This document shows positions 6,917 through 38,875 of a stretch of DNA of 64,000 bases, in pieces. A model generated the notes under the pieces. The model saw nothing but the letters and a program-made list of their open reading frames with translations. It was not told the origin of the DNA and searched no databases. The DNA is taken from positions 37,502-101,501 of the forward strand of contig CAZHAQ010000001.1 in the NCBI GenBank assembly GCA_964529785.1. Direction: 5' to 3'. Position numbers and translations under genes: made by a program. The DNA is from an uncultured Candidatus Saccharibacteria bacterium. Lineage in GTDB: Bacteria; Patescibacteriota; Saccharimonadia; Saccharimonadales; JACDBH01. Each line of letters begins with the position of its first letter. Position 1 is the stretch's first letter.

Positions 6917-7390
6917 GTGAAGCTCTGGTTGATTTTAGGTAAGACGGTGTTTGTTTTAGGCTGGCCGGTTTGGTATTTATATTTTAAGTTAGTGCCTAGG
7001 CGAAGCCGAGTAGTGGTTGTTTGGCAGGATAAAGTGCTGCTTGTAAATAGCTGGTTGAGCGGTAGTACCTGGGGCCTTCCTGGGGGCGGTGCACATGCCG
7101 GTGAGTCTCTTGAAGCTTCCGCTATCCGTGAGCTAAAAGAAGAAACCGGTTTAATAGCTGACGAGGCAGCACTTCAGAAGCTGGATACCTATTACCATAA
7201 TGAGCATGGTCTCAAATATGAAGCTACTTTTTATTTATTAAAATTAAGTAACCCAAATCAACTAAAGCGGCAGAGGCTTGAAATAGCCCGGCTTGGCTGG
7301 TTTTCAGAAGCTGAATTCGCAAGCATGAATATAAGCAGCGACACCAAGCGCATACTGGCTAACTTTAATAAAAAAATTTGGTATAATTGA
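6917..7390 (+). CDS. NUDIX hydrolase with an N-terminal TM segment
   Basis: Nudix box GLPGGGAHAGESLEASAIRELKEETG. GTG start immediately after the uvrD stop. Confidence 0.75.
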   Translation: MKLWLILGKTVFVLGWPVWYLYFKLVPRRSRVVVVWQDKVLLVNSWLSGSTWGLPGGGAHAGESLEASAIRELKEETGLIADEAALQKLDTYYHNEHGLKYEATFYLLKLSNPNQLKRQRLEIARLGWFSEAEFASMNISSDTKRILANFNKKIWYN

Positions 7391-7482
7391 ATCGCATATT
7401 ATTGATTGGAATTACCTAAAATTTAACATTAAGTTAAGTATGTTTAAGTTTTAGGCACTAGGATAATGACTTATAAACATGT

Positions 7483-9168: not shown

Positions 9169-9959
9169 AGCCAAATAAGCAATTAGGCCAGCACTGGCTG
9201 CATGAGGAGCAGTCGCTTAATTCAATGTGCCATGCTGCTGAAGTTGGCCCCGATGACCTGGTGCTAGAAGTTGGTCCAGGGCTCGGAACATTAACTGAAA
9301 AACTGCTGGGCATTGGTGCTGAAGTTTGGGCTTTAGAATTTGATGAAGGTCTTATCCCTGGGTTAAAAAATAAATTTGCCAAATATGATAAGTTCCATAT
9401 TGAGCATGTAGACATATTGAAGTACGACTTCAACAAACCTAAACCAGGCTATAAAGTAGTTGCCAATATACCTTATTATTTGACGTCTAATTTGCTGCGT
9501 AAAATGTGCGAAGCTGAAAACAATTTCAGTAAGGCAGCGCTTCTGGTTCAGAAAGAAGTTGCCGAGCGAGTTTGCGCAGGTCCGGGTGAAATGAGTCTGC
9601 TAAGCGTGAGTGTGCAGTACTACTGTGAAGCTAGCTTGGGAGATATTGTTCCAGCAGAACTGTTTACGCCTCCGCCTAAAGTGGATTCTCAGATATTAAA
9701 GTTAACATATCGCCAGCAACCGCTGTTTAGTGATGTGGATAGTGGTAAATTCTTTAGACTAGTTAAAGCTGGTTTTTCCGAGCGCAGAAAAATGCTCAGA
9801 AGCAGCTTAAGCGGCGGTCTGGGTATATCTAAAGTTGATGCAGAAGAACTGCTGGATAATGCAGGTATAGATTCAAGGCTTCGGGCCCAATCCTTGTCGC
9901 TGGAAGATTGGTACAAGCTATACTTGCAAGCTTATGCTAAAAATATTAAAGTAAATTAG
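9165..9959 (+). CDS. rsmA: 16S rRNA (adenine1518/1519-N6)-dimethyltransferase
   Basis: KQLGQHWL N-terminus (KsgA LGQNFL motif), the SAM-binding VLEVGPGLGTLT and NIPYYLTS motifs. Confidence 0.85.
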   Translation: MKPNKQLGQHWLHEEQSLNSMCHAAEVGPDDLVLEVGPGLGTLTEKLLGIGAEVWALEFDEGLIPGLKNKFAKYDKFHIEHVDILKYDFNKPKPGYKVVANIPYYLTSNLLRKMCEAENNFSKAALLVQKEVAERVCAGPGEMSLLSVSVQYYCEASLGDIVPAELFTPPPKVDSQILKLTYRQQPLFSDVDSGKFFRLVKAGFSERRKMLRSSLSGGLGISKVDAEELLDNAGIDSRLRAQSLSLEDWYKLYLQAYAKNIKVN

Positions 9960-9991
9960 ATTCAATCACTAGAGGGAAAATTAATAAACAA

Positions 9992-12091
9992 GTGAAAATA
10001 TTCAAAAAAATCTCTATAGGTGTAGTGGTATTGCTCACACCCGTTATTATTATCAGTAGTACATCACAGCCTGTGAGCGCCGCTACAATTTCGGTATCAT
10101 CCGGAAATGATGGTCTTGTTAATAATAGCCAGTGCCAGCTATCAGAAGCAATTATAAACATAAATGATCAGGCACAGACTCATAGCGACTGCCCTTCAGG
10201 CAGCGGTAATGATGTAATAAAACTGCCGGAAGGAACAATCACCCTGACTGCAGATCTTCCGGTTTTAACAAAAAAAGTAAAAGTTGAAGGCCAGGGCTCG
10301 CAAAAAACCTTGATTGATGGCGCTGGTCAGTATCGGGCATTTTTAGCAAATGGCGATAACGTACAAGTGGAGTTCAGCGGATTAAAATTCCGGGCTTATG
10401 CTGGCAGGGCAATTTTCGCTATGAAAGTAACTAAAGCTACTGTTCACGACGTGGAGATTGATGGCACGGATGCGGTACCTGCTGAAATAGTGCCTGATGA
10501 TCCAAACTCTATGATGCTTATAGGCTTTGGGGTCTATCAAAATGAAGTTGAAGAAGTAGATGTAAGTATTAATAAATTATACGTACATGACTTAGACAGT
10601 AGTGGCAGCAGTGCTTCATTTACAGCGGGTGTAATCTCTATCAGCGCCGAAGGTACAGCCCAAACGATAAATGCAAAAAATATTACCGTTTCTGGCGTAA
10701 GATCTTCTGATCCAGAGGGTCAGTTAATGGGTGTCTGGACTACAGCAGGCCTCGGAGGCGGCAAGCACGGTTCAATACAAGGGACGTACGAAAATATAAC
10801 GGTTGAAAATATATACTCTGAGCAAAGTCTAAATGTCGCAGGGTTTGGCTTATCAAGTGTTGCTGAGCAGGAAGACAAATTAAGCAGTTCGCTTACTCTG
10901 AAAAACGCAACTATAAGAAACTTAAAATCGGCTAACGATCCTTACGGTATAAGCGGTGGAATAGGCGTTGCAGGGGGAACTTTTGCACCAACTGACAATT
11001 ACACCATTAACCTTAATCTGCAGAACGTTATTATTGCTGACATTGAGGTGGGCGGTCAGCCTAAAGGTTGTGGTAAAAATGATATAAGTGCGCTATTGGG
11101 GGGCGGCGGTAGCGTTAATATTATTTCTGAAAGCTTTGGTGGCAACATTGCGGACACTGCTTCTTGTGAACAGTTCTTTAATAACTCTGCTGATATAAAT
11201 AATCGGTCTAACCTTAAAGATACTCTCGGTACTATATCCAGTAACGGCACCGAGTTGCCAACCTTACCATTGCTGCCAGGAAGTCCGGCAATAGACAGAG
11301 GCGTCTGTGAGGGCGCTCCAAATACGGATGCTCGAGGAGTTTCTCGTCCTCAAGGTAAATCTTGCGACTCTGGCGCTTACGAACTAGAGCAGGCTAAAAT
11401 GGCAGCAATTGAAGGCATACAGAACCCTAAGACTGGTAAGGTAGTGTTTATAGACTCGCCTGCAGAGGGATCAGTCGTTAAGCAGGCTACGCTGCTGGAG
11501 CAATCGTCAGCTCCAAGCGATAAAGGATATAATTATCCTCTTGGCCTTGCAAGCTTTATCGTAGAAGGCGTACAGCCTGGCAGTACACAGACAATGAATG
11601 TCTATTTTGAAACCGCTGACAAAGCTAGCAGTTTTGTAGCAAGAAAACTAAATGATATTACTGGAGAATATAAAGACCTGCCAGGGGCTGTATTGACCAA
11701 CGAAACGCGAAATGGCAAGCCAGTTGTAAAGTTGAGTTATCAAATTACCGATGGAGGAGAGCTTGATCTTGACGGTGCAGTCAATGGTACATTTACGGAT
11801 CCCGTAGGGATTGCCAAGCAAAGCTCACTAGTCAACACTGGCGTTAAGGCTGCTGTTGTTTCATCCCTTAGCTTTATAATTGTTCTAACTACAATAGCCG
11901 TATATTTAGACTATAGGCGACATAAGGCTCCGCTGCTAGCTCTAGATATTTCAAAGAATAAAGAGCTGGCAAAGCACTACACTTTCTGGCACCACATTAA
12001 GGTGGTTACACTGCCTGTTATGAGGTATAGAGTTACATTTATAGTTGAGAAAAAGCTTATCTCCCCCGTGGTCCATAAAAGCGAAAAGTAG
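9992..12091 (+). CDS. large secreted parallel beta-helix surface protein (CSLREA-type N-terminus, choice-of-anchor-like CxSGAYE motif) with a C-terminal TM anchor
   Basis: Signal peptide followed by the CSLREA-like motif NSQCQLSEAI. Gly/Asn-rich beta-helix repeats and the motif DARGVSRPQGKSCDSGAYE. C-terminal LVNTG (LPXTG-like), a TM helix and RRHK, then a roughly 55-aa tail. Confidence 0.5.
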   Translation: MKIFKKISIGVVVLLTPVIIISSTSQPVSAATISVSSGNDGLVNNSQCQLSEAIININDQAQTHSDCPSGSGNDVIKLPEGTITLTADLPVLTKKVKVEGQGSQKTLIDGAGQYRAFLANGDNVQVEFSGLKFRAYAGRAIFAMKVTKATVHDVEIDGTDAVPAEIVPDDPNSMMLIGFGVYQNEVEEVDVSINKLYVHDLDSSGSSASFTAGVISISAEGTAQTINAKNITVSGVRSSDPEGQLMGVWTTAGLGGGKHGSIQGTYENITVENIYSEQSLNVAGFGLSSVAEQEDKLSSSLTLKNATIRNLKSANDPYGISGGIGVAGGTFAPTDNYTINLNLQNVIIADIEVGGQPKGCGKNDISALLGGGGSVNIISESFGGNIADTASCEQFFNNSADINNRSNLKDTLGTISSNGTELPTLPLLPGSPAIDRGVCEGAPNTDARGVSRPQGKSCDSGAYELEQAKMAAIEGIQNPKTGKVVFIDSPAEGSVVKQATLLEQSSAPSDKGYNYPLGLASFIVEGVQPGSTQTMNVYFETADKASSFVARKLNDITGEYKDLPGAVLTNETRNGKPVVKLSYQITDGGELDLDGAVNGTFTDPVGIAKQSSLVNTGVKAAVVSSLSFIIVLTTIAVYLDYRRHKAPLLALDISKNKELAKHYTFWHHIKVVTLPVMRYRVTFIVEKKLISPVVHKSEK

Positions 12092-12151: not shown

Positions 12152-12555
12152 GGGGCTGTATAGCTCGACATTTGGACTTTTACAAGTTGGTGCCAGCAGG
12201 CCGGAATATCTGAACGTTATCCGGATGACTCAAATAGATGCAGAATCTCTGAAATCTATTGCAAAACAAGTTGCAAGCGCTTTCCGCGCACCACAGCTTG
12301 CTTTTGCAACAGCTGCCTAATTATTAGGTCAGCGACTGATAGCTCGATGTCAGATAGAGCGAACCAGTCTTATATACTTCTGACTGCTTAAGCATTATGA
12401 TCCGTAGTGCTTATTAAGACTTTAGGATTGCAGCGCATGAAGTTTTTGCTTATCTACATCTTCATGAACTTAAGAAACAATTTTAAATAAGCTAAGCCTG
12501 TAGAAAGCCAGCAAGTAACCGAATGGACGCGGGATCGTACCCGCCAGCTCCACCA
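12152..12555 (+). ncRNA. ssrA: tmRNA (SsrA), with tag ORF ending ...PQLAFATAA-stop at 12318-12320
   Basis: 5' GGGGCUG pairs with 3' CAGCUCC-ACCA, including the G3:U wobble of alanine-identity tRNA-like domains. The 3' T-arm is GGACGCGGGAUCGUACCCGCC. The internal ORF GCA AAA CAA ... GCA ACA GCT GCC TAA encodes AKQVASAFRAPQLAFATAA. Length about 404 nt. Confidence 0.85.
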
Positions 12556-18848: not shown

Positions 18849-19212
18849 GAAAATTATTTCTGGGAGCATAGCCCATCGCCAAGAAGAGCGGGAGGCTGAA
18901 CTCTACAGGGCGTTGATTAGGCGTGAAGCTAAAATAGGCGGTCAGTTGTTTGGGCCCGTCCCCGAAGGCTGCCGACGTGAATTTTTCTGCCTAGACGAGC
19001 GTACATGGGTGTGGCATGAAGAATGGACGGACTCAGAAGGCAAGCGGCAAGTGCGCACAACCAGGTATGATGTTCGTCCCTCTGGCATATTGAAAGCTCA
19101 GGATGGACAAAATTACCAGCCAGTTACAAGCAGTGAGGCTTTAAGGCTGAGAAGTGCAGTCCACTCTTATAATAAGCGTATCCGTAGCGATCTTTATGCT
19201 GCCTATCTTTAG
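18832..19212 (+). CDS. hypothetical protein
   Basis: 126 aa. Overlaps the upstream ORF. No recognisable motif. Confidence 0.3.
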   Translation: MASIIKKIISGSIAHRQEEREAELYRALIRREAKIGGQLFGPVPEGCRREFFCLDERTWVWHEEWTDSEGKRQVRTTRYDVRPSGILKAQDGQNYQPVTSSEALRLRSAVHSYNKRIRSDLYAAYL

Positions 19213-19242
19213 GCTTTATACTTATTAAAATAATAACGCAAT

Positions 19243-20397
19243 ATGACAAGAATTTATTTAGATTATGCGGCAGCCACACCGATGAGCCAGTCGGTACTAA
19301 GCGCTATGCAGCCGTTTTTTACTGAGAAGTTCTATAATCCGTCTGCTCTTTACTTAGCCTCAAAGGATATCAAAAGCGTCTTAAATGAGGCCAGGTCGGA
19401 AGTAGCTAAGGTGCTTGGCTGCCGCTCATCTGAGATTATTTTTACAGCTGGCGGCACCGAATCGGACAATTTGGCCATAAGCGGCGTAATGCAATCGTTT
19501 CCCGGTAAAAATTGTATTGTAAGTGCAATTGAGCATGAGGCTGTCTTAAAGCCGGCAAGCCAGTATCCCCATAAAGTTGCTTCAGTCATGAGTGATGGGC
19601 GAATAGATCTTGATAAGCTGGCAGCTTTAATAGATGACGATACGGTATTAGTCAGTGTAATGTATGCCAACAATGAGATCGGTACCATCCAGCCTTTAAA
19701 GGAAATCGCCTCGTTAATTAAAAAGGTTAGGCAGGATCGTTTAAATAGGAGTGAAAAATCCCAAGCGCTGCCGCTTTATTTTCACACGGATGCTTGCCAG
19801 GCAGCAAATTATCTGTCCTTATCTGCAAGCAGTCTGGGTGTAGATCTAATGACTTTAAACGGCGGCAAGATTTATGGACCCAAACAGTCCGGGGTGCTGT
19901 TTGTTAAGACTGGCACAGAATTAAAACCTCTAATATTAGGTGGAGGGCAAGAGCGTAACATTAGGAGCGGAACTGAAAATGTCCCTGCGATCGTAGGCTT
20001 TTCAACTGCACTACGAGAAGCCGCCGAGATGAGTGAAAGCCAGCAAAAAACTATAGGTGAAGTTAAGTCATACATGATTAATGAATTAAGCAAGAAACTC
20101 CCTCAAGTTAGAATAAACGGCTCGCTAAAACACCGTCTGCCAAATAACGTACATATAACGATCCCGGACACCGATAATGAGCGGATAATGATGGAACTTG
20201 ATGAGCTAGGAATAATGGTGGCAACTGGCTCTGCTTGCAGTGCCAGTTCAGATGAACCTTCGCACGTGCTTAGTGCCATTGGCTTAACAGAAGAAGAAGC
20301 GAGAAGCAGTTTAAGAATCAGCTTTGGTCGCAAGACTGATAAAGCCCAGATTGATTTGCTTATCAGTAGTCTGGTGTCCCTAGTTGCGCACAGTTAA
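19243..20397 (+). CDS. cysteine desulfurase (IscS/NifS family, PLP-dependent)
   Basis: IYLDYAAATP N-terminus, the PLP-lysine region, and the active-site Cys loop GSACSA. Confidence 0.85.
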   Translation: MTRIYLDYAAATPMSQSVLSAMQPFFTEKFYNPSALYLASKDIKSVLNEARSEVAKVLGCRSSEIIFTAGGTESDNLAISGVMQSFPGKNCIVSAIEHEAVLKPASQYPHKVASVMSDGRIDLDKLAALIDDDTVLVSVMYANNEIGTIQPLKEIASLIKKVRQDRLNRSEKSQALPLYFHTDACQAANYLSLSASSLGVDLMTLNGGKIYGPKQSGVLFVKTGTELKPLILGGGQERNIRSGTENVPAIVGFSTALREAAEMSESQQKTIGEVKSYMINELSKKLPQVRINGSLKHRLPNNVHITIPDTDNERIMMELDELGIMVATGSACSASSDEPSHVLSAIGLTEEEARSSLRISFGRKTDKAQIDLLISSLVSLVAHS

Positions 20398-20422
20398 ATA
20401 AACTAGTAAAATAACAATAAGC

Positions 20423-21268
20423 ATGTTTCTAATAAAAATAAAAAACTTCATTACTATTAAGCGCTTGCTGTCGGCAACGGCTCTGCTTGCAATAATCGTC
20501 ATGAACTTAAATGGATTCCTGGGAGCTCAAAGCGTTACACAGGGCTATGGAGCAGATGAAGCCTTGCAAAGAGGCATGATAGTAGGCACTAAGCCAGATG
20601 ACGCAACAAAAGTAGAGCCAATTAATAGAGATAGCCTTGATAGAATGCTGGGGGTTGTAGTAGAAGCCAATGATTCGCCTATTACATTGTCAGGAGAAGA
20701 TGAGCAGGCATATGTAGCAACAGTAGGACGCTATGATGTATTGGTTAGCGATCAGAATGGCAGCATAAAGTCGGGAGACTACATAACAGCTTCTTCTGTA
20801 AGCGGAATCGGAATGCTGGCAACCTTTGAAGAAAGCGAGATATTGGGTCGGGCAGTAGATAATTTTGATGGTGAAAATGCAATTATCGGCAGTAGTAGTA
20901 TCAGTGATTCAGGCGGAGGGTCTCGCACTGTAAATATTGGCCGTGTTCAACTTGATATTGCGATTTCAAAAAATCCGATAGCTAAAAGTGCAGCTGTAAC
21001 GCCCGAGTGGCTTGGTAAGATTGGTCAAGCTATTGCCGGTAAGTCATTAAGCCCAGCTAGGATTTACATCAGTGCCGCGGTCTTTCTTATCGGGGCATTC
21101 ATTGCCGGGGCAGTCTTATACTCCGGAGTCAGAAGCAGCATTATATCTATAGGCCGTAATCCGCTGTCAAAAAAAAGTATTATTCGTGGATTACTGCAGG
21201 TTATTTTTACAAGCTTAATAATTTTTATTATCAGTGTAATTGGGGTATATTTACTACTAAAGGTATAA
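20423..21268 (+). CDS. secreted-domain protein ending in an ATP synthase c-subunit-like two-helix hairpin (lacks the ion-binding carboxylate)
   Basis: Signal peptide, then an extracytoplasmic domain of about 190 aa. The C-terminal GAFIAGAVL...SIISIGRNPLSKKSIIRGLLQVIFTSLIIFII matches the c-subunit motifs GAxIGxGxL, the R-Q/N-P loop and LLRTxF. No Asp/Glu in helix 2. Confidence 0.4.
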   Translation: MFLIKIKNFITIKRLLSATALLAIIVMNLNGFLGAQSVTQGYGADEALQRGMIVGTKPDDATKVEPINRDSLDRMLGVVVEANDSPITLSGEDEQAYVATVGRYDVLVSDQNGSIKSGDYITASSVSGIGMLATFEESEILGRAVDNFDGENAIIGSSSISDSGGGSRTVNIGRVQLDIAISKNPIAKSAAVTPEWLGKIGQAIAGKSLSPARIYISAAVFLIGAFIAGAVLYSGVRSSIISIGRNPLSKKSIIRGLLQVIFTSLIIFIISVIGVYLLLKV

Positions 21269-21296
21269 GCATTTTAAAAGGGTGGCTTGATTAAAT

Positions 21297-21932
21297 ATGA
21301 ATACTTGGGGGTTGGGATTAGTTATCGGTGCATTAGCTGCTACGGCGATTGCGTTCGTATGGGTGGCTATAAGACTAGGTTCAGCTGAACCTGCAGCTAA
21401 AAAAGAAGAGCCAGGCGATAGCCGGGAGGCAATTGGGCAAGCGGCAGTTGAGGATGTGGAGAATATTTTCAACGAGGAGTACCGCGAAGAGCTTAGAAAT
21501 CGCGGCAGGATGCATTTTGAAAAAGTCATTGGCGAAAACGCCCAGTTCCTGCAGCAGGATTTGCGCTTGACCACCTCGCAAATCAATGAATTTATGAAGC
21601 AAGAAATTAGCAATACTCTAAAAGAAGAGTTTGCCAAATATCAGCAGTCGATTGACGACATAAAGAAAATGACATTAGAGTCAATCCAGAAAACTGAAGC
21701 TTCTCTCGAAGAGGAGAGGCAGCAGATGCGCGTACAGTTAGAAAATGAAGTAGCCCAACAAAAAGAAAAACTGATTAAAAGTTTTGAACAGAATATGGGA
21801 GAAATAGTTAACCATTATGTTTTAGATGCAATTGGCAATGAAATTAACTTAAATGAACAGTTAGGGTATATTTTAACCGAATTACAGGAAAACAAAGAAG
21901 CGATAGTGGAGGATATTAGGAGTGGAGCCTAA
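21297..21932 (+). CDS. atpF: F-type ATP synthase subunit b (probable)
   Basis: Single N-terminal TM followed by a long charged coiled coil. Located immediately upstream of delta. Confidence 0.5.
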   Translation: MNTWGLGLVIGALAATAIAFVWVAIRLGSAEPAAKKEEPGDSREAIGQAAVEDVENIFNEEYREELRNRGRMHFEKVIGENAQFLQQDLRLTTSQINEFMKQEISNTLKEEFAKYQQSIDDIKKMTLESIQKTEASLEEERQQMRVQLENEVAQQKEKLIKSFEQNMGEIVNHYVLDAIGNEINLNEQLGYILTELQENKEAIVEDIRSGA

Positions 21933-22689
21933 AACTCCTTATCCCGCAGAGGATACTCATGTATCAAGGCCGCACCAGTCTCCGCTGCGGCCTGCGGCTT
22001 CTGCTTCTGTCGCTGAAGTTCCTAGCAGTCCAGATTCTAGTACTGGTTCAGTCACTGAAGCTGCAAAAGATTTAGTATTACCTCCAAGTGTTATTTCAAA
22101 GAGTGATGTTTCAAGAGGTCTAAGGGAGCTATCGGAAATAGATGACTATTTTCATCAAGCTTCAATCCGGGGCAGTAAAGACCAGGAAATGCCATCGGTG
22201 AGCAAGGTTTTAGAGGTTACGGCTGAAGCCAATGGACTTAATCTTATACATGCTGATGACAGATCTAAGCTTAAGACTTTTCTGACTGGCGTTAAAGCGG
22301 GCGCACCAGTTGTGCATATAAGTTTTCCTTCGGAAGCCAGTAATCAGTTTCTTGGCAAGCTGTTGGATTGGTTTAGGACAGAGGTTCATCCATATACATT
22401 GATGCGGGTGGGCCTCAAGCCGGAGCTTATAGCCGGCTTTATGCTCAGGACAAATAATAAGTCTTTTGATTTTAGCTTTAGAAAACGATTTGAGCGGAGT
22501 AAGCAGAAACTAATAGACGCAATTAGCGAATCCAATAAAACTCATGCTGCAGACCAGGACCAAGGGCAGCTGGTTGAGCCTGCTACGCCTACAGAAGCTC
22601 AGGTAGCAGTAGATCGTCCGCTTGATGAAGGGGCGCCTCAGCCGTTAACTGATGCATCAGAAGACAAGCCAGTGGAGGTAGCTTCATAA
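21922..22689 (+). CDS. atpH: F-type ATP synthase subunit delta (OSCP) with a Pro/Ser-rich N-terminal extension
   Basis: C-terminal [27 protein letters not shown] resembles the delta signature (VDPSLIGG-VIRIGD-VIDGSV). GTG start. Confidence 0.55.
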
Positions 22690-24241
22690 TGGCTAGAGAA
22701 GACTCAGTAAATATTCAGCAGTTTCAGAAGCTGGTTGATCAAGGCAATCCTGTCGGCGAGGTAATAGGTGTTGACCAATTCATTGTAATGGTTAAAGGCC
22801 TTCACCCAGCCAACGCTCACGCCCTAGTGATGTTTGAAGATGGCAGCAAGGGCTTTATAAATCATGTACTGGAAGATTATGTACTTGTCCTGCATCTAGG
22901 AACTGAGCATTTAAAAGTTGGCATGGTCGCCGTTACCCAGCACGATCGACTTGTAGCAAAGGTGGGCAAAAACTTTATAGGTCGAGTAGTAAATGTCATG
23001 GGCGAGCCTCTTGACGGCAAAGGGCCGATTGCACCTGATGATACTTGGCCAGTTTTTAATCCAGCGCCACCTATATTTGAACGAGAAATGCTTGACTACC
23101 AACTGGAGACAGGGGTTACTTCAGTAGACGGGCTTTTCCCTATAGTGCGCGGACAACGACTTGCAATACTTGGAGATAACAAGACTGGCAAAACTGCTCT
23201 TGCCACCCAGGTTGCAATTAACCAGAAAAATACCGATATCATTACCATTTACGTACTAATTGGCAAGCGGCGCTCAGATATTGACGAATTAATTGCCCGC
23301 TTAGGGGAGACCGATGCGCTAAAAAATACCATCATAGTCGTGTCAACGCTATTTGAATCGCTAATTATGACTTATCTTGCACCATATGTTGGTTGTGCCA
23401 TGGCTGAGTACTTATGGCAGTCATGCGACCAGGACTCAATGATTGTTTATGACGATTTGACATCGCATGCTCAAGCTTATCGTGAGGTCGCGCTATTATC
23501 TGGAGTTAGCCCTGGACGAGACTCTTATCCTGGCGATATGTTTTATGCTCATTCCAGTCTTCTTGAACGCGCAGGAAAGCTGCAGCGCAACCACAAAACT
23601 CTAACCAGTTTACCTATTGTCTTGACACCGAATAACGATATTACCGCTTACTTGCCGACTAATATCATGTCTATCACTGACGGACAGTGGATTATGGATT
23701 TGCAAGTATTTTTATCAGGCATTCGTCCGGCATTATCTACCGGGTTGAGCGTGACCCGTGTTGGTGGTGTTGGTCAAAACAAGCGTCAAAAGTCCCAGAC
23801 TGTAGCCGCAATGAAAGCGTTGGCTACTTATAGGCAGGCAGAGGAGTACGCCCACTTTGGATCAGAGCTGGCTTTGAGTGCCCATAAAGATCTGGCACGT
23901 GGTAAAAGTATTTTAGAATTATTTAATCAGCCGCCGACAATAACCTACAATTTTATGGAACAGCAGCTAATGTTTGATATTGTCCTAAATACTGACGATA
24001 CAGCCACACTAGACGTTAAAAAAATGAAAGAAAATGTTAAAAGTTTAGCCGAGCAGGTAAAAAGCGACGAAGATTTTGACAGAGTTCGTGATCAATTGTT
24101 AGCTGCAAGTATGCTTGGCGGCGCGCCTTCACAGCCCCAGGGAGATGGCACAACAGAGCTTTCCGGCGGCGGCAGCCAAGTAGTTGAGCCAGTAGCTCAA
24201 GCTCCTGCTGAGGACGGTAAGCCGGTAGAGGAGCCTAAAAA

Positions 24242-24245
<4 letters not shown>
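22689..24245 (+). CDS. atpA: F-type ATP synthase subunit alpha
   Basis: [17 protein letters not shown] and Walker [13 protein letters not shown], typical alpha layout. C-terminal low-complexity extension. Confidence 0.85.
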
Positions 24246-26487
<2,242 letters not shown>

Positions 26488-26491
26488 TAAA

Positions 26492-26788
26492 ATGGCTGAA
26501 AAAGATAAGCCAGTAGAAGAAGGGTTAAAAGACAAGGACGGAAAACCTCTAATGCATATAAAGGTTTACTCTCCTTTTGAAAACTATTTTGACGAGCCAG
26601 CCTACAGTATTAGCGCTGAAAATCATACTGGCCCTTTTGATATCCTGCCCAAGCATCACAATTTTATGACGATGATAAATCCTGGCGAAATAAAGATCGC
26701 TGCACCAAGTGGTGACAAAGTAATAAGAATAAACCGCGGTGTAATGCATGTTAAAGCTGATAAAGTCGTAGTTTTTCTTAATGTTTAA
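26492..26788 (+). CDS. atpC: F-type ATP synthase subunit epsilon (beta-sandwich domain only)
   Basis: 98 aa. GPFDILPKHHNFMTMINPGEIKI matches the epsilon N-terminal domain. C-terminal helices are absent. Confidence 0.6.
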   Translation: MAEKDKPVEEGLKDKDGKPLMHIKVYSPFENYFDEPAYSISAENHTGPFDILPKHHNFMTMINPGEIKIAAPSGDKVIRINRGVMHVKADKVVVFLNV

Positions 26789-27526
26789 TTAAAATGTGGC
26801 AACTGCCTGTATCACTAGTACTGTGCGGTAGCGCCCACCCGGAGTGCTGGTAGCTTTATTGGCTATTATGGACATCGTATAGTCGGTCTGACCCGATTCT
26901 TCATTACTCTCAGCGATAATATCCCCGTCTACGTATTTGAAATAGTTAACCTGGTCATAGCCTGTAGAGGGTAGGCCGTATGAAAAGCTGTTGTCGGGCT
27001 GCTGGACAGGATTGGTGCCAATACCCGGGTTTGAATTTGCAACTAGATTAATCCCAAACTGTTCGGTTCCTGGCACGGATTCGCTTGCTCCACTAATTGC
27101 AGTTAGGGCATGGGACCTTTGACCGGATACATTGGTAGGCGGCGATCCATGTACGCGAACCACATAGCCTTCAGACAGATAGCTGGCAACAGTAAACCCA
27201 GTACTGGCAGCTGCCGTACTGGTTTCATTAAGTACGCCTAAATCTATATTTGTATTTCCATTAACCACTAAGGATAATGTTGGCTCATCCGGCGTACCGA
27301 AGCCGGCCATTATTCCATAATTCTCACTGCTGGCTTCTCCACCGGTACCGCCTACAGACTGTTGGGAGCAGAAGCTGTCGGAGCATGCTTCAAGCTCGCC
27401 GCCGCTGCCCATGAAAATTTCGTCCACTGAATAGTTGGGTGAAGCTAGCTGGGCACTGGCAATTGCCGGTATAGACAAAAGCGCAATAAACACCCCAAAG
27501 CCGGCGCGAATCAGGCTGGATTTCAT
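26789..27526 (-). CDS. secreted surface protein, paralog A of a three-member family with a WxL-like (YxL-variant) C-terminus
   Basis: Signal peptide. Shared motifs GTEQFGINL and C-terminal GRYRTVLVIQAVATF. Paralogous to the ORFs at 28894 and 30257. Confidence 0.45.
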   Translation of the reverse strand: MKSSLIRAGFGVFIALLSIPAIASAQLASPNYSVDEIFMGSGGELEACSDSFCSQQSVGGTGGEASSENYGIMAGFGTPDEPTLSLVVNGNTNIDLGVLNETSTAAASTGFTVASYLSEGYVVRVHGSPPTNVSGQRSHALTAISGASESVPGTEQFGINLVANSNPGIGTNPVQQPDNSFSYGLPSTGYDQVNYFKYVDGDIIAESNEESGQTDYTMSIIANKATSTPGGRYRTVLVIQAVATF

Positions 27527-27611
27527 ATCACTATTTTTGCATGTATTTTAATTGTCATCAAGCTGCTTATGATTTGAGTATTAATATAGTATTATAGTTA
27601 CAAAAGTCATT

Positions 27612-28745
27612 ATGGAAGATAAAGATAAGACAAACGAGACTCAGTCTCCAGCCCTTGATGGAAATGAAGCTAAGGATTCATCCGCTAGCCAAAAATCTGA
27701 CAAGTCAGCTGAAGAACTGATGGGGCAAGTAGCTAATGAGGATACGTCTCTTGATGGTGGAGGCGGTCCCAAGCAGTCGGCCGTTGATGCTATGGCTGAC
27801 AGCTCCAATAAAGAGGATGACCCCTCAGCTGCTCCGAAAAAGCCTGAAGCGAAAGGCATTAAAAAACTTCTAAGCAAAGTTAATATCTACCTACTGCTAT
27901 TTGTTTTGGTCGTCGTGATTGCGGCAGCAGCTTATGCAGTGATGTATTTCATGAACAAGCGAGAAACCCAGATCCAGCTTGAGACAACCAAGCTTACCAA
28001 TGAAACACTAGACCAGCTTAAGACGTCGGATGCTTTTGTAGGTGATCCGCGTCAAATACTTACCATAGAATCAAATGCAGTTATTACTGGCAAGGTAATA
28101 ATGCGGGACACACTGGACGTTGCAGGATCCCTAAATGTGGGCGGACCGCTTAGCGTTCCCGATATTAGTACGTCAGGGTCCGGGTCATTCGGAACGCTGC
28201 AGACAAATGATTTGCAGGCGGGAGGAAATGTTGCTGTCGGTGGAATCTTAGACGTGGTAGGCACTTTAACAACGGGGGAAAATTTATCTGTTGCAGGTGA
28301 TATTAATGGCGGCGGAAGACTGGATATAGGCGGCCAGGCAACTATAGGCGGAAACCTAAATGTTAATGGCACTATATCGGCCCGGGGAATAAATTTTGAT
28401 GAGATATCGATTACTCGTATAAATATAAGCGGCAACAATCCAGGAGTATCAGTAGGCGGTGCGGCTGGTGGAGGTGGCACAGCATCAGTGAGTGGATCTG
28501 ACACTGCGGGTACGGTTACTATAAATACGGGCGGCGGAACAGGCACTGGTATACTTGCAACCATTAATTTCACAGGAGCATTTAAGAGCAATAATCCTCA
28601 TGCAGTTATAACGCCTAATGGTCCAGGCTGCTCGGGGATAAACTATTATGTTACAAATTTCAGTTCTACGCAGTTTTCAATTGCTACATCTTCGCCTCCA
28701 CCACCAGGCACAAGCTGCCGATTTAACTATATTGTTATAAATTAA
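27612..28745 (+). CDS. type II membrane protein with an extracytoplasmic bactofilin-like Gly-rich beta-helix repeat domain
   Basis: Acidic/Lys-rich N-terminal 90 aa, one TM helix, then about 11-residue repeats with the pattern L.V.G.L.V.G (bactofilin/DUF583-like). Confidence 0.45.
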   Translation: MEDKDKTNETQSPALDGNEAKDSSASQKSDKSAEELMGQVANEDTSLDGGGGPKQSAVDAMADSSNKEDDPSAAPKKPEAKGIKKLLSKVNIYLLLFVLVVVIAAAAYAVMYFMNKRETQIQLETTKLTNETLDQLKTSDAFVGDPRQILTIESNAVITGKVIMRDTLDVAGSLNVGGPLSVPDISTSGSGSFGTLQTNDLQAGGNVAVGGILDVVGTLTTGENLSVAGDINGGGRLDIGGQATIGGNLNVNGTISARGINFDEISITRINISGNNPGVSVGGAAGGGGTASVSGSDTAGTVTINTGGGTGTGILATINFTGAFKSNNPHAVITPNGPGCSGINYYVTNFSSTQFSIATSSPPPPGTSCRFNYIVIN

Positions 28746-28893
28746 TGTCTATTTTTTACTGCCGGAGATTACGGTATTGTTCGCTGTGGATAACCGCTAG
28801 CATTAACCATTGCATTGCCATAAACGGTTTGGTAAAGTTAAATCCAGGTAACACCTAAAATAAACAGTAAATAAAATTAAAAGGAGAAAATGC

Positions 28894-30096
28894 ATGAGTG
28901 ATAATTATGCAATTTCGCTGAAACGCACGATGACGCTTATTGCTGCATTGTCATTTATGGCAGTGCTATTTGCAGTAAACTTCTCGGCGATATTCAGCGC
29001 GCATGCGGGTGCAGCTCAGCTTGAGAGTAGGAGCTTGACGCTAAGCAGTTCGCTTGCAGGTACTGAGGTGGGGGATTCTATCGCCGGCTCAGAAACAAAC
29101 GGAAGTGCGGCAACGCATACTTTCAAATTTACAAAATCAGCTGCATCAGACAGCGCAGACAGAATAAGTTTTGAGTACTGTGATGCAGCTGTTGGAACGT
29201 GTAACGCTCCCGATGGGCTAGACCTTACTGCTGTAACTGCAACTGGCGGCACTGGAGTGACTGTGTCTAACCCGTCAGTGTCAGGGTCAAAAGTTACTGT
29301 TGAAGCGACATCATTGTCAGCAGGCGCTGCAGCTATTACCGTTCCACTTGGGAACATAGAAAACCCGGATGTTACTCCAGTTTTCTTTGTTAGGATAGAA
29401 TTATTTGCCAACTCTGCCCCTGCAACAATTTTAGATGAAGGTACAGTAACAAGCGCAATCACAGAAGGGATTACAATTACCACGCGCGTTACAGAAACTC
29501 TTGGTTTCTCAACAACAGCAGATATTGCTAGTGGTGTCCCTGTTCCAACTTCATCTTGCGTACCATTAACTGGTTCAGGTGCTATCCAAATGGGTGATCC
29601 TATAGAAAATACTCTAAGCATTACTCAAGCTTATGATGCCTATTCAGTATTTCGCCTATACACCAACGCATCAAATGGTGTAGCCGTACAATATGAAGGT
29701 AAAACCTTAACAAAAGGTAACGACGAGATTGATGAAATTGGTGCTTCGCCCGCATTCGTACAGACTGGTACTGAGCAGTTCGGTCTTGGCATAGATACTA
29801 CTGCTAATGGCGGGACCATATCCAATGTTGATACAGCTTGGACTGGCGGTGCAGGCAATATATTACCAGAAGCTGACTATGGTCTTGCGGATGGCGCAAT
29901 CAGTACGAGTGGTACTGGCGCACAGTTCGCTTTTGTTGCCGATACTCCAACAACCTTAGCTTCTTCAGATCCATTAGAAGGTGGTTATGTAAACTGTGCA
30001 ACTGGTGCAGTACGCTACGTAGCAAATGTAAGCCCGCTTACACCATCCGGTGTTTACACTACCACTCTAGTTTACTCAGCAGTTCCTACTTACTAA
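28894..30096 (+). CDS. secreted surface protein, paralog B (WxL-like C-terminus)
   Basis: Signal peptide. GTEQFGLGIDT and a terminal PSGVYTTTLVYSAVPTY resembling the terminal WxL motif (TLTWSLxDxP) with Trp replaced by Tyr. Confidence 0.45.
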   Translation: MSDNYAISLKRTMTLIAALSFMAVLFAVNFSAIFSAHAGAAQLESRSLTLSSSLAGTEVGDSIAGSETNGSAATHTFKFTKSAASDSADRISFEYCDAAVGTCNAPDGLDLTAVTATGGTGVTVSNPSVSGSKVTVEATSLSAGAAAITVPLGNIENPDVTPVFFVRIELFANSAPATILDEGTVTSAITEGITITTRVTETLGFSTTADIASGVPVPTSSCVPLTGSGAIQMGDPIENTLSITQAYDAYSVFRLYTNASNGVAVQYEGKTLTKGNDEIDEIGASPAFVQTGTEQFGLGIDTTANGGTISNVDTAWTGGAGNILPEADYGLADGAISTSGTGAQFAFVADTPTTLASSDPLEGGYVNCATGAVRYVANVSPLTPSGVYTTTLVYSAVPTY

Positions 30097-30151
30097 ATTA
30101 ATATAATAAGACATAGATCTTAATTAAATAGACATAGCATCTAATATATAA

Positions 30152-30197
30152 ATCGGCTTGATTACGGACATAGTTCCAATAAATCAAGCCGATATTT
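30152..30197 (+). terminator. hairpin terminator-like structure after surface protein B
   Basis: Perfect 12-bp inverted repeat ATCGGCTTGATT / AATCAAGCCGAT (30152-30163 and 30182-30193) with an 18-nt loop, followed by ATTTATTTT. Confidence 0.4.
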
Positions 30198-30256
30198 ATT
30201 TTAATTAAAATTAATTAAGGTCCTAACTATTAAGTTTTTGGGTTAAAATATATAGC

Positions 30257-31330
30257 ATGAGCTTTATAGGGTCTTTCAAGGCTAAGTTTTATGATGCTGT
30301 AGCGCTGATTGTTTTATTGTTAACTCTACTAATATTAGGCGGACTTGTTGTAGCAAGAACTGTTAGCGCTTTTGATTATCCGAAATTGCTAAACCGAAGT
30401 TTAGCTATTGGGTCAACAGTTCCTGGGGCAACTACAGACTATACTTTTAGCTGGCGATACCCAAGTCCTACTACCGTAAGATCAGTTAAAATGATCATTT
30501 GCGCTGACCCATATGTATTAGACCCCTGTAGTTCAACGCCTGCTAGTGATTTTTCCGCTGGAGTTCTATCAAGCCAGTCTGGTGATGTAACGGGATTTAG
30601 TATTCTAAGTCAGACGGCAAATGAGATTGTATTAACCCGTCCAACAGGACCGGCTGGAGCTGGTCAGTCTACTTATGTTTTTGAAAATATGGTGAATCCT
30701 ACTGGCTTACATTCTAAATTTTTCGTTCAGATATTTACTTATTCAAGTGCTGATGCAAGCGGTACACCTAATCATATATCCAGTGTAGCCAATGCAACCG
30801 TTGAGCCAATTGTAGTCAGCACTATCGTACCGCCAATTCTTTATTTTTGCGTCGGCCTGACAGTAGACGAGTGGTGCGAAAACTCATATGGTAATTTTAT
30901 AGATTACGGAGATTTGAGAGCAGATGAGACTGATGCTGGAACTTCGCAATTTGGTGTCGCGACTAATGCGGTTGGTGGCTACACAGTTACCATTAATGGC
31001 GGCACTATGGCGTCCGGGAATAAGCTAATAGAACCTTTATCCGTTCCGGCTGGTAATTCTCCCAGCACATCCCAGTTTGGATTAAACTTACGGGCCAATA
31101 CTGATCCAGCGTTAGGTCAAGACGTATTTGGCGCAGGCATCGGCGTGGTGGCGCCAGATTATGATTCTCCTGATTTATACAAATTTAGTAATGGCGATAC
31201 TGTGGCTACTGCGGCTACCGGCTCTCTATTTAATACGTATACAGCTACGTATATTGTAAACGTACCGCCCGATCAACCCTCCGGTATATATACAGCTACT
31301 ATTGCGTACATTTGTACAGCAGCGTTCTAG
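30257..31330 (+). CDS. secreted surface protein, paralog C (WxL-like C-terminus)
   Basis: Signal peptide. TSQFGLNLRANTDP and a terminal PSGIYTATIAYICTAAF. Confidence 0.45.
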   Translation: MSFIGSFKAKFYDAVALIVLLLTLLILGGLVVARTVSAFDYPKLLNRSLAIGSTVPGATTDYTFSWRYPSPTTVRSVKMIICADPYVLDPCSSTPASDFSAGVLSSQSGDVTGFSILSQTANEIVLTRPTGPAGAGQSTYVFENMVNPTGLHSKFFVQIFTYSSADASGTPNHISSVANATVEPIVVSTIVPPILYFCVGLTVDEWCENSYGNFIDYGDLRADETDAGTSQFGVATNAVGGYTVTINGGTMASGNKLIEPLSVPAGNSPSTSQFGLNLRANTDPALGQDVFGAGIGVVAPDYDSPDLYKFSNGDTVATAATGSLFNTYTATYIVNVPPDQPSGIYTATIAYICTAAF

Positions 31331-31445
31331 GATGTTTATTGATAATTGTGTGTTAAATTTTACACGTTATATAGTCTAGGCAATGATTGAAAATTTATGT
31401 TAGACTATCCTTAATTCTAATGCTTTACAAAAAGAGGGGAGATAA

Positions 31446-32489
31446 ATGAAAAGATTTCTTAGGCTGTTTGCTGTTACGGCAGTTCTAGCAGGCTTTGTGG
31501 TAGCTCAACTTGGTCAAGTCAGCGGGCAGTCAAACGCACTGGCCATACAGCCGCGCAAAGATTACTCACTGCGACCAGGGGAATCGGTAGATGATACCCT
31601 TACAGTTACAAACCGAAATAATGAAGAGACACTGAATCTGCAGCTTAAGATAGTTGACTTTCAGGCACAGGATGAAACCGGTACTCCGCAGCTGATGCGT
31701 GATAGCACTGAACGTACTGCTTGGTCATTAAAGAACTTTATAGATATGCCGCAGCAGGTAACTGTAAATCCTGGGGAAACTATCCGGGTACCGATTACTA
31801 TTTCTATACCCAATGATGTTGGAGCAGGAAGCTACTATAGTGCAATAGAATATGCGGCCACTGGACCTACTGCAGAAGATAGAGTAAACATATCGGCATC
31901 AGGTGTTAGCTTGGTATTTGTGAAAGTCCCAGGTCAAGCTAAGCAGCAGCTTACATTTATGCAGTTTGGCGCTTTCGTACCGGATGCTACTGGAAGCGGC
32001 GGATCGTTTAAGGGGCTGTATTTTGGCGAACGACCAAGGGTGCTAGCTTATAGGCTAAAAAATGATGGAAATATAGCCGAGCAGCCGAACGCAAGCATTA
32101 TAGTTAAGAATTTCTCGGGTAAAACTATATATACGGTTGCCGATGCGAATCCGAAGGACCAATTAGCTTTAAGAGGTCAGACTAGGCGGTTTGATGCATG
32201 TATTAATCCAGAAGATATTACCCAGACAACTGAATCGGGCGCTGACATTAATGCTGTAGTTTGTGGCGATACAAACCTTAGCCCTGGTCGCTACACTGCT
32301 GAATTAAGTGTATTGTACGGTGAGAATGGCAGTGAGACTCGTGAGATAAATGCTAGGACTACCTTCTGGTACTTGCCATGGTGGTTCGTGGGTCTGATAG
32401 TTGTTGGACTTGGAATCTTGGCTGGTATAGTAGTGTATATTGTCCGAAGAGTAAAAGATGTTAGAGGCCGCAAAACTCGCCGCCGTTAG
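31446..32489 (+). CDS. cell-surface protein with a C-terminal TM anchor and basic tail (CscA/DUF916-like architecture)
   Basis: Signal peptide, then a beta-rich ectodomain (YSLRPGESVDDTLTVTNRNNEETLNL). C-terminal WWFVGLIVVGLGILAGIVVYIV followed by RRVKDVRGRKTRRR. Strong SD GAGGGGAG. Confidence 0.4.
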   Translation: MKRFLRLFAVTAVLAGFVVAQLGQVSGQSNALAIQPRKDYSLRPGESVDDTLTVTNRNNEETLNLQLKIVDFQAQDETGTPQLMRDSTERTAWSLKNFIDMPQQVTVNPGETIRVPITISIPNDVGAGSYYSAIEYAATGPTAEDRVNISASGVSLVFVKVPGQAKQQLTFMQFGAFVPDATGSGGSFKGLYFGERPRVLAYRLKNDGNIAEQPNASIIVKNFSGKTIYTVADANPKDQLALRGQTRRFDACINPEDITQTTESGADINAVVCGDTNLSPGRYTAELSVLYGENGSETREINARTTFWYLPWWFVGLIVVGLGILAGIVVYIVRRVKDVRGRKTRRR

Positions 32490-32509
32490 TAAAATAAATA
32501 AGTAGAAAT

Positions 32510-32538
32510 AAAAGGCCTCGGACAGACCGCGGCCTTTT
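32510..32538 (+). terminator. rho-independent terminator
   Basis: AAAA-GGCCUCGG-ACAGA-CCGCGGCC-UUUU. 8-bp GC-rich stem (one G:U) flanked by A- and T-runs. Confidence 0.8.
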
Positions 32539-32591
32539 AACTTTTGCTGGCAAAGCATAAGAACTCAAGGTAGAATAGTAACTAAGTTAAT

Positions 32592-33503
32592 ATGAAGAAA
32601 ATTAAACTAGTATTATTAAGCTTAAGCACAGCAATGCTAGCGACTTTGGTGATTGCGCCTAATAGCTTAGCTCAGCCCAGCAGGCCCCAGACTAATCCTA
32701 GCGATCAGGGTATAGGTATGGAGGGGCGTATTCAGCAGCCGCCTCCTACAGAAGCGCCTACAATATCGCTGCCTGCTAATGGCCAAGTTTTTCAGGAAAT
32801 ACCGATCACCGTATCAGGCTTGTGTACCGATGGACTGCTTGTCAGAATCTTTAAGAATAATGTATTTGGCGGCGCGGTTATGTGTGAGGGTGGCAGTTAT
32901 AGCCTGCAGATAGATTTATTCCCTGGTCAAAACGAGCTTGTTGCCAGGCAGTATGATGACCTAGACCAAGCTAGTCCTGAGTCAAATAGAATAACAGTTA
33001 TTTATGACATTGATGTGCCGGTAGTTCCTGGATCTCCCGGTCAAGTAGGTCAGAGGGTTACGTTGACGACAAATTTCGCTAGACGAGGTGTCGACCCTAA
33101 CCAGGAGTTAGTTTGGCCAATAGCAATTAGCGGTGGTAGGGGTCCGTATGCGCTTAGTATTGATTGGGGTGATGGCAAAAATGAACTGATGACTCAATCT
33201 GCGGCCGGCAATTTTGACATAAAGCACATTTACGATAGGCCTGGTGTTTATAAAGTCATTATAAAAGCGACCGACTCAGATGGTGCATCAGCGTTCTTGC
33301 AAGTAGTAGCAATTGTTAACGGTGCCATAAATCCAGCGGCCAATATCAATGATCAGCCAACAGTTACTAGGACTAAAATAATGTGGCAGCCGGCATTAAT
33401 AACTTTTCCTTTACTGCTATCCTCATTCTGGCTAGGTAAGAGATATCAGTTGAGGCGGGTGCGATATCGTATGAAGCATCGCATTGTTCCGATAGATAAG
33501 TAA
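32592..33503 (+). CDS. PKD-domain surface protein with a C-terminal TM anchor and basic tail
   Basis: Signal peptide. PKD-like PYALSIDWGDGKNELMTQSAAGNFDIKHIYDRPGVYKVIIKATDSDG. C-terminal TM followed by KRYQLRRVRYRMKHR. Confidence 0.5.
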   Translation: MKKIKLVLLSLSTAMLATLVIAPNSLAQPSRPQTNPSDQGIGMEGRIQQPPPTEAPTISLPANGQVFQEIPITVSGLCTDGLLVRIFKNNVFGGAVMCEGGSYSLQIDLFPGQNELVARQYDDLDQASPESNRITVIYDIDVPVVPGSPGQVGQRVTLTTNFARRGVDPNQELVWPIAISGGRGPYALSIDWGDGKNELMTQSAAGNFDIKHIYDRPGVYKVIIKATDSDGASAFLQVVAIVNGAINPAANINDQPTVTRTKIMWQPALITFPLLLSSFWLGKRYQLRRVRYRMKHRIVPIDK

Positions 33504-33674
33504 AAGCTGCGTATACAATTTAGAGAGTTGGCATCCCGGTACTGGATGGATGTTTGTAGCTCGATCTAAAAATCTACGCAGCGCGCCGATTAGACTATAA
33601 GTGGCATTCCTCCTAGCACTCCAGAACATCTCTGAAGCTCTGCTTGATCGCTAAAAGGAATTAAACTCATTGCA

Positions 33675-34013
33675 TCATCTGCCTGCTAGGCGCTTTCCTT
33701 CCTCTTTAGTCGCGGGCCTGTTACTGAAGTAGTAGGGCAGGCAGATAGCCAGCAAAAGCAGGGCTACTATCGTACCTGCTAGAAAGCTCACTCCAGTATT
33801 AGAGTCGGAGTAATTACCAATCAAGAACTCTTCTCTATGGGAATTTGCAATGAGCGCATAAAGCAAGTAGATGATGCTCAGGGTCGTAGCAAGGATAGAA
33901 GTAGTCAGCTTGGTGATTTTGCTGGTGTTCTCGCGAAGGAATACGCGCTCAATTATCACCTCAATAAATGTCGCTATCAAGACTGCAGTAAGAAAGTAGC
34001 AGAACCAGTCCAT
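33675..34013 (-). CDS. small hypothetical membrane protein (about 3 TM)
   Basis: 112 aa, hydrophobic. No motif. Confidence 0.3.
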   Translation of the reverse strand: MDWFCYFLTAVLIATFIEVIIERVFLRENTSKITKLTTSILATTLSIIYLLYALIANSHREEFLIGNYSDSNTGVSFLAGTIVALLLLAICLPYYFSNRPATKEEGKRLAGR

Positions 34014-38871: not shown

Positions 38872-38875
38872 AATT

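Follow-up and report, generated by a model that had tools for sequence, protein, structure and literature searches.

X281, a Saccharibacteria membrane protein encoded beside an F1-like ATPase cluster and Pam pilus genes, as a possible adaptor between the two

The locus described here lies in a 64,000-nucleotide stretch of DNA (the window) from an uncultured Candidatus Saccharibacteria bacterium, which belongs to the CPR (candidate phyla radiation; assembly GCA_964529785.1, contig CAZHAQ010000001.1). At its centre is a gene for a 281-residue membrane protein, which we call X281, standing 25 nt 3' of a cysteine desulfurase gene and 28 nt 5' of a tightly packed or overlapping run of six co-directional genes related to those of F-type ATPases. 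The run is directly followed, after the epsilon gene, by a complete CPR-type Pam pilus locus (26789-33503). An earlier note, made from this DNA alone, had reported an open reading frame (ORF) directly upstream of ATPase genes ordered b, delta, alpha, gamma, beta and a truncated epsilon, with no gene for subunit a or c. This observation proves largely real: the ORF lies 28 nt before the b-like gene, alpha, gamma, beta and epsilon are recognised by Pfam and NCBIfam models, b and delta are less firm, and epsilon is indeed short. The pilus context after epsilon is new. The closest relatives of every window gene examined come from metagenome-assembled genomes of Saccharibacteria (Saccharimonadales). 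The genes from X281 to epsilon are as follows.

20423..21268, plus strand: X281, a conserved Saccharibacteria membrane protein without a family name (281 residues)
21297..21932, plus strand: b-like stator protein, 211 residues, called from architecture and position only (one N-terminal membrane helix, then a long charged helical region)
21922..22689, plus strand: delta-like protein, 255 residues, with weak but consistent C-terminal matches (OSCP, E 0.018; four NCBIfam delta models, E 0.02-0.04) and a conserved position
22689..24245, plus strand: F1-like alpha subunit (PF00006, E 3e-67; best NCBIfam F0F1 alpha model 417 bits, cut-off 554)
24242..25132, plus strand: F1-like gamma subunit (PF00231, E 1.4e-24; TIGR01146 70 bits, cut-off 194)
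25129..26487, plus strand: F1-like catalytic beta subunit (PF00006, E 5e-62; TIGR01039 423 bits, cut-off 463), with GGAGVGKT and GERIREG intact
26492..26788, plus strand: short epsilon subunit of 98 residues, beta-sandwich only (PF02823 at residues 21-95, E 1.9e-14), without the C-terminal helical domain

The ATPase encoded here is divergent. None of its four recognised subunits, alpha, gamma, beta and epsilon, reaches the NCBIfam equivalog cut-off for F0F1 enzymes (epsilon with 46 bits against 67), and the b-like protein has no b-subunit match in Pfam or NCBIfam. The window beta subunit gives 315-361 bits to every canonical beta in the PDB, bacterial or organellar, little more than its 283 bits to the beta subunit of the Mycoplasma mobile G1-ATPase; canonical betas are usually far more alike to one another than this. 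Two of the subunits carry additions of their own. The delta-like protein begins with an extension of about 60-100 residues, rich in Pro, Ser and Ala, that is missing from most orthologs (155-195 residues), and alpha (518 residues) ends in a low-complexity tail that is not found in the common 475-residue orthologs. A promoter and terminator scan of 19200-33700 gave counts at chance level and is uninformative on the operon boundaries.

A search for subunit a and c genes gave nothing, either in the window or, to a distance of 10 kb from the operon, in 80 related Saccharibacteria loci, which were collected by a beta-subunit search with one genome per species. The search for a and c covered all ORFs with phmmer and a hidden Markov model of the two subunits, together with a regular expression for the Arg motif of subunit a; the c-subunit profile was validated against the PDB, and the a-subunit query was a single E. 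coli sequence. In Southlakia epibionticum the flanking genes follow the order seen in the window (metS, tatD, two small genes and a cysteine desulfurase, then mnmA, alaS and pilM), only ydcF stands between the desulfurase gene (nifS) and mnmA, with nothing ATPase-like, and the canonical atpI-a-c-b-delta-alpha... operon is contiguous at a different locus. In published KEGG counts (PMC12592800, Table S5), S. aalborgensis, GWC2_44_17 and M. amalyticus have two copies of alpha, beta and gamma but a single copy of a, b and c. TM7x and RAAC3 have one of each ATPase subunit gene, and the 15 genomes of the order CAILAD01 all lack a, b and c, five of them having alpha. Given the absence of a and c nearby, the Southlakia synteny, these counts and the divergence of beta, the genes after X281 look like a second, distinct ATPase locus and not the canonical operon. 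The earlier note's suggestion that a and c are encoded elsewhere probably holds only in the form of a separate, complete canonical operon in some Saccharibacteria; the c-paralog reading that went with it finds no significant profile match.

KEGG calls of an F-type ATPase in Saccharimonadia mix a canonical a/b/c set with a second alpha/beta/gamma(/epsilon) set, and the CAILAD01 genomes show only a set of the latter type, without a, b and c (PMC12592800, Table S5). Statements that these bacteria encode a nearly complete ATP synthase may mislead, which would bias inferences on ATP synthesis and proton-motive force. In the literature on an ATPase without a and c in Saccharibacteria we found only indirect statements.

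The pilus genes that follow epsilon include PamT, Pam pilins and PamR, all above their cut-offs.

26789..27526, minus strand: PamT, tip pilin of the CPR-type Pam pilus (NF058579 277 bits, cut-off 240)
27612..28745, plus strand: membrane-anchored repeat protein of 377 residues, no family match, present or absent together with the pam genes
28894-30096 and 30257-31330, plus strand: two Pam pilin genes (NF058581, CPR_Pam_pilin_C, 93 and 155 bits, cut-off 55)
31446..32489, plus strand: probable membrane-anchored Pam chaperone (PamC/PamD-like), from its position, the preprint description and weak WxLIP_PGBD and Fn3-like Pfam matches
32592..33503, plus strand: PamR, RbmA-like pilus anchor protein (NF058578 398 bits, cut-off 300)

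The gene pair for PamT and the 377-residue protein is inverted in the window, PamT being on the minus and its partner on the plus strand; most relatives have both on the reverse strands. The Pam pilus was described in a recent preprint (Troman et al. 2026, bioRxiv 10.64898/2026.03.03.709456), whose accessible text reports electron cryomicroscopy structures of M. amalyticus filaments of PamA and PamB, assembly by donor-strand exchange, chaperones, PamC and PamD, that are tethered to the membrane, and PamR as the anchor. Its authors conclude explicitly that there is no specialised trans-envelope machinery, and they see in the ATP synthase genes a connection with ATP production. In the same accessible text X281 is not named, the missing a and c subunits are not remarked upon and the hairpin of X281 is not described. 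The 'tail fibre-like protein' mentioned there may be X281, since the outer domain of X281 matches phage fibre anchoring domains (see below), or it may be the 377-residue repeat protein at 27612-28745.

X281 is tied to both neighbours. The b-like gene lies directly downstream of X281 in 54 of 54 GTDB species loci (median gap 32 nt) and in all 62 metagenome loci retrieved with X281 as the query, and the adjacency is also seen in two divergent relatives with quite different flanking genes (L085 and L086). The presence of X281 follows that of the pam genes: 46 loci have both, 11 have neither, two have X281 without pam genes and none has pam genes without X281 (Fisher p 2.8e-10, uncorrected for phylogeny). 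Pam genes were also present in all 21 X281-centred metagenome loci with at least 8.5 kb of downstream sequence. In each of the 11 loci without X281 the desulfurase gene adjoins the b-like gene and epsilon is directly followed by mnmA, whereas X281-bearing loci have six more genes between epsilon and mnmA. On the beta-subunit tree seven of the joint absences group in a single clade and the other four are scattered, so joint loss occurred several times. Because X281 is gained and lost with the pam genes and always stands ahead of a motor lacking a and c, it probably connects motor and pilus rather than carrying ions.

X281 has more than 2000 homolog clusters (2363 in a large protein collection), which rules out a chance ORF. 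Nearly all are 275-285 residues long, none has a Pfam domain and every cluster with a taxon name is from Saccharibacteria, so that as judged from these sequences the family is confined to that group. X281 itself has no family match in Pfam or NCBIfam, the NCBIfam Pam models included. One divergent relative (L086) carries two X281 paralogs (7305-8111, minus strand, and 9857-10798, plus strand), of which one lies upstream of the operon in the opposite orientation. In an AlphaFold2 model built from 71 sequences (mean predicted local distance difference test score, pLDDT, 83.5) residues 12-29 form a helix and residues ~38-185 an all-beta domain; then come a short amphipathic helix and two long C-terminal helices at 211-245 and 247-280, each of 34-35 residues and joined at G244-L248. 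The protein divides as follows.

20423..20527, plus strand (residues 1-35): N-terminal signal peptide or signal-anchor helix, a Lys/Arg-rich start followed by a hydrophobic helix (12-29 in the model)
20534..20977, plus strand (residues ~38-185): extracytoplasmic all-beta domain, similar to the N-terminal domain by which phage fibre and decoration proteins are anchored
21053..21157, plus strand (residues 211-245): hairpin helix 1, hydrophobic core 214-236, then a polar extension toward the cytoplasm
21152..21166, plus strand: invariant cytoplasmic loop G244-R-N-P-L248, which hhalign places on the R-Q/N-P loop of c subunits
21161..21262, plus strand (residues 247-280): hairpin helix 2, membrane core without Asp or Glu

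In the family alignment L21, A35 and Q36 are invariant or nearly so, and the -3 position before A35/Q36 is Leu in the window protein; the N-terminal helix may be either a signal peptide that is cleaved or an anchor that is not. Lys and Arg residues flank the loop and enrich the N-terminus, which fits a predicted topology with a cytoplasmic loop and the beta domain outside. In Foldseek searches of viral models the beta domain matches over about 150 residues (E 4e-9 to 1e-6, root-mean-square deviation about 3 A), the named matches being preneck appendage proteins, the N-terminal domain of Mtd and DUF2190 proteins; in the PDB it matches capsid decoration proteins and the N base of phi29 gp8.5 (E 2e-4 to 2e-3). 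The fold is thus that of the phage anchoring domains, but identity is 16-24% and there is no Pfam match. The phage counterpart is part of a virion, whereas that of X281 is encoded in a cellular genome and joined to a membrane hairpin. Phage fibre-anchoring-type domains generally form trimers.

The C-terminal hairpin is where the resemblance to the F-type c subunit (AtpE, PF00137) lies. Both have two long helices with outside termini and a short polar cytoplasmic loop (in X281 by predicted topology), the loop being R-N-P in X281 and R-Q/N-P in AtpE and followed by 34 and 36 residues, respectively, and both genes stand directly upstream of a b-type gene. A model of the hairpin alone (pLDDT 89) retrieves mostly F-type c subunits from the PDB, about 45 of the top 50 matches being bacterial, mitochondrial or chloroplast c subunits (target TM-score 0.75-0.89, root-mean-square deviation 1.1-2 A over 67-70 residues, identity 14-28%). 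GRNPL occurs without exception in the 54 family members compared, which come from different species, and in 71 of 71 sequences. Unlike AtpE, X281 has a signal or anchor helix and a beta domain of about 150 residues before the hairpin, no a gene nearby, no GxGxGxG motif and no carboxylate. Helix 1 has only G229 (in 43 of 54 members) and G235 (45 of 54), with small residues at 224/225/228/229/234/235. Asp and Glu are absent from the cores of both membrane helices in the 54 members, residues 260-279 included; the only acidic site near them is position 259 at the cytoplasmic boundary, which is Glu in three of the 54.

Sequence comparison takes the resemblance little further. PF00137 finds no match in the X281 hairpin at E<=10, nor in any of 33 hairpins scanned singly; Pfam and NCBIfam searches with X281, its two halves and the 33 single hairpins gave no c-subunit signal, only weak unrelated membrane families, and profiles of the family and of the hairpin found no c subunit at E<=10 among PDB sequences. 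The hairpin profile had 726 matches among 1.84 billion representative proteins and did not reach c subunits; among the best 150 of the 726 the proteins are mostly about 260-300 residues long, with the hairpin C-terminal in all, and we take the shorter matches to be fragments. We also aligned the hairpin by hhalign with 8 and then 127 c subunits (8 whose profile was validated against the PDB, and 119 retrieved). With the 127, only the loop aligned locally, RNP on RQP, with a probability of 1.8% and a score of 15.3, which 5 of 150 column shuffles reached (null 10.5 +/- 2.2); the global score of 10.1 was reached in 2 of 150 (null 3.2 +/- 2.4). These scores fall in roughly the top 1-3% of shuffles (p ~0.01-0.03). 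In the global alignment the column of the c-subunit carboxylate holds Leu, Ile or Val in the X281 family.

The earlier note had described a hairpin with the c-subunit topology (N-out, loop-in, C-out) at the atpE position and without an acidic residue at the ion-binding site of helix 2, all of which is borne out, the topology as a prediction; across the 54 homologs, in an alignment of the kind that the note had suggested as a check, the hairpin and its loop are conserved and the carboxylate is missing. It had further called the match to c subunits motif-for-motif. The register of that alignment stands (RNP on RQP, Leu at the carboxylate column) and its significance does not, being marginal over the shuffle null. 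The lack of a significant profile match is the outcome that the note had itself named as telling against its idea. As no profile match to c subunits is significant, X281 cannot be classed with the c subunits or their paralogs, and the label of degenerate c-like paralog is not earned; an N-terminally extended ordinary AtpE is ruled out by the missing carboxylate and the missing profile match. To judge by sequence and model, the hairpin is c-like in shape, with a likeness in sequence that is suggestive and is not evidence of homology; its descent from a c subunit is possible but rather doubtful. The setting of the ATPase locus within a Pam pilus locus is more interesting than the c-subunit framing.

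Two known systems place an F-type ATPase at a surface structure. The Type 2 and Type 3 F1-like X0 ATPases of Mycoplasma are each encoded by a cluster of seven genes, which include alpha-, beta-, gamma- and epsilon-like ones but neither a nor c (PMC3369863, PMC12994834). Compared by description of their architecture only, MMCAP2_0577/MMOB1650 of Mycoplasma and X281 share an N-terminal signal peptide (or, for X281, a signal anchor), an extracellular part, which is variable in Mycoplasma, and two C-terminal membrane helices. When cross-linked, the Type 3 protein of this layout is co-purified together with ATPase subunits and the MIB-MIP surface system (PMC12994834). Just as the Mycoplasma cluster adjoins a surface system (MIB-MIP or the gliding machinery), the Saccharibacteria cluster adjoins Pam pilus genes. 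The Saccharibacteria cluster differs in keeping b-like and delta-like genes, which the Mycoplasma clusters lack, and in its gene order, no 12-helix membrane protein, a feature of the Mycoplasma systems along with a small cytoplasmic protein, is encoded between nifS and mnmA, and X281 is a protein of 31 kDa compared with 85-127 kDa for the Mycoplasma counterparts. The window alpha and beta also fall below the cut-offs of the models for MSC_0619/MSC_0618 (284 against 520 and 395 against 570) and MMOB1660/MMOB1670 (335 against 600 and 335 against 850). By analogy, the X281 system may work like a Mycoplasma F1-like X0 ATPase without being a member of that group. The accessible parts of Seymour et al. 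2023 (PMC10066038) describe an F-type ATPase of Omnitrophota that is non-respiratory and encoded beside type IVa pilus genes; its beta subunit was reported to cluster with Saccharimonadia betas. That system is likewise a divergent F-type ATPase at a pilus locus in ultra-small, probably host-dependent bacteria, but its pilus is of type IVa and not the donor-strand-exchange Pam type, and no X281-like protein is described in those parts of the paper.

Elsewhere in the window, 37582-40642 holds an FtsA/PilM-like gene and then a 588-residue ORF without a family match, which by synteny are the 'PilM' and 'baseplate J/gp47 family protein' of Southlakia; the gp47-family gene scored as essential in the transposon-sequencing study of that organism. 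A transfer-messenger RNA gene with the tag peptide AESLKSIAKQVASAFRAPQLAFATAA lies at 12152-12555. A secreted protein with LysM and CHAP domains, probably a peptidoglycan hydrolase, is encoded at 42209-43327 and may matter for the epibiotic lifestyle.

We propose that X281 is a non-ion-translocating membrane adaptor of a pilus-associated F1-like ATPase without a and c, a proposal for and against which we see the case as evenly balanced. Several observations weigh against it. In the 11 related genomes that lack X281 and the pam genes at this position, the b-to-epsilon cluster is intact, catalytic motifs included, so the ATPase must have a role, or a partner, that does not need X281. Constraint on the conserved sites of epsilon, gamma and b is not relaxed in these lineages relative to control clades; relaxation might have been expected after the loss of a docking partner. 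One relative (L087) has an X281-like gene (2014-2928) followed by two giant ORFs (1321 and 1290 residues) and no ATPase. No sequence method links the hairpin to c subunits significantly; the E-values of its fold matches to them are all >0.1, which is weak for a plain helical hairpin, and the structure table of the Southlakia study assigns an 'F1F0 ATP synthase subunit C' fold to a VirB2-type pilin, so such matches are unspecific. The evidence for a second ATPase locus, finally, comes from related and reference genomes and, for the window's own genome, from its 64 kb; a canonical operon may lie elsewhere in that genome.

Part of this evidence would suit an X281 that is purely a Pam pilus component, an anchor or assembly platform whose hairpin is an ordinary membrane anchor without contact to the ATPase, the gene order reflecting co-regulation or history. 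Such a protein would be expected to go with the pam genes and leave the ATPase intact and unrelaxed, as observed, its hairpin would have no significant similarity to c subunits, and an outer domain like those that anchor phage fibres suits the holding of a filament. We nevertheless consider this unlikely. The ATPase genes stand between X281 and the pam genes, and X281 adjoins the b-like gene in 116 of 116 loci, in lineages with other flanking genes too; its most conserved part is the GRNPL loop, which points to a cytoplasmic partner; and in the models the helices of about 34 residues reach some 10 residues beyond the membrane on the cytoplasmic side, as those of c subunits do.

Two further readings seem improbable to us, in about equal measure. 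One is that of an ordinary F1Fo ATP synthase split between loci, with atpB and atpE elsewhere and X281 a degenerate, extended c paralog or an unrelated insertion. It would account for the retention of b-like and delta-like stator genes, which normally implies a subunit a to bind, for the persistence of the ATPase without X281 and for the single copies of a, b and c in complete reference genomes (PMC12592800, Table S5). In reference genomes with two alpha/beta/gamma sets the single a/b/c set goes, however, with a b that KEGG recognises, and the b-like protein of the window would not be recognised; the canonical operon of Southlakia is contiguous and at another locus, alpha, beta, gamma and epsilon are seen in CAILAD01-order bins although none of the 15 has a, b or c (PMC12592800, Table S5), and the window beta is about equally distant from all canonical betas (315-361 bits). 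The other makes X281 a true, carboxylate-free descendant of AtpE that forms a transmembrane rotor, a c-ring-like ring or a trimeric bundle, turned by gamma and epsilon and passing ATP-driven torque, by way of its outer domain, to the base of the Pam pilus, so that the surface filament itself would rotate. The atpE position upstream of b, the c-like fold with its R-N-P loop and a profile similarity marginally above the null, the kept stator proteins that a rotary mechanism requires and the linkage to pilus genes all agree with it. Against it, homology to c subunits is not significant, the ring-packing GxGxGxG motif is absent, and a phage-like outer domain of a generally trimer-forming kind fits a ring of 8-15 subunits poorly. 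The unconventional rotor raised in the earlier note is a possibility weakened by the 11 genomes in which the b-to-epsilon ATPase persists intact without X281. If it were true, CPR epibionts would have put a rotary ATPase to a new use, the movement or assembly of a surface filament, and a rotor derived from c would supply the trans-envelope machinery that the Pam description says is missing.

On the adaptor proposal, the module would consist of a second F1-like ATPase (b-like, delta-like, alpha, gamma, beta and short epsilon) joined to the CPR-type Pam pilus by X281. X281 would be inserted through Sec, its beta domain, similar to the trimer-forming phage anchoring domain, would lie outside the membrane, and its c-subunit-shaped hairpin would span the membrane as an oligomer that presents GRNPL to the cytoplasm. 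With no a subunit and no membrane carboxylate, X281 could not carry ions. The loop would instead be a docking site for the cytoplasmic ATPase, most plausibly for the foot formed by gamma and epsilon, the outer domain would contact the pilus base or membrane-anchored assembly proteins, and ATP hydrolysis would be coupled to pilus work in the form of assembly, anchoring, movement or turnover. The contacts of X281 with gamma/epsilon and with Pam proteins, its oligomeric state and the kind of work are what we infer.

Attachment to host cells is the way of life of Saccharibacteria and other CPR bacteria, and the Pam pili rank with the most abundant proteins that they make. A channel-less motor of the ATP synthase family, together with an adaptor that tracks the pilus genes, is a concrete candidate for the machinery that assembles, anchors or moves the Pam pilus across the single membrane of these cells. 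If the proposal is right, this would be a second independent case, after the F1-like X0 ATPases of Mycoplasma, in which the head of a rotary ATPase has been recruited to the cell surface, and a protein made of a signal peptide plus a C-terminal hairpin may be a recurring coupling element in both systems.

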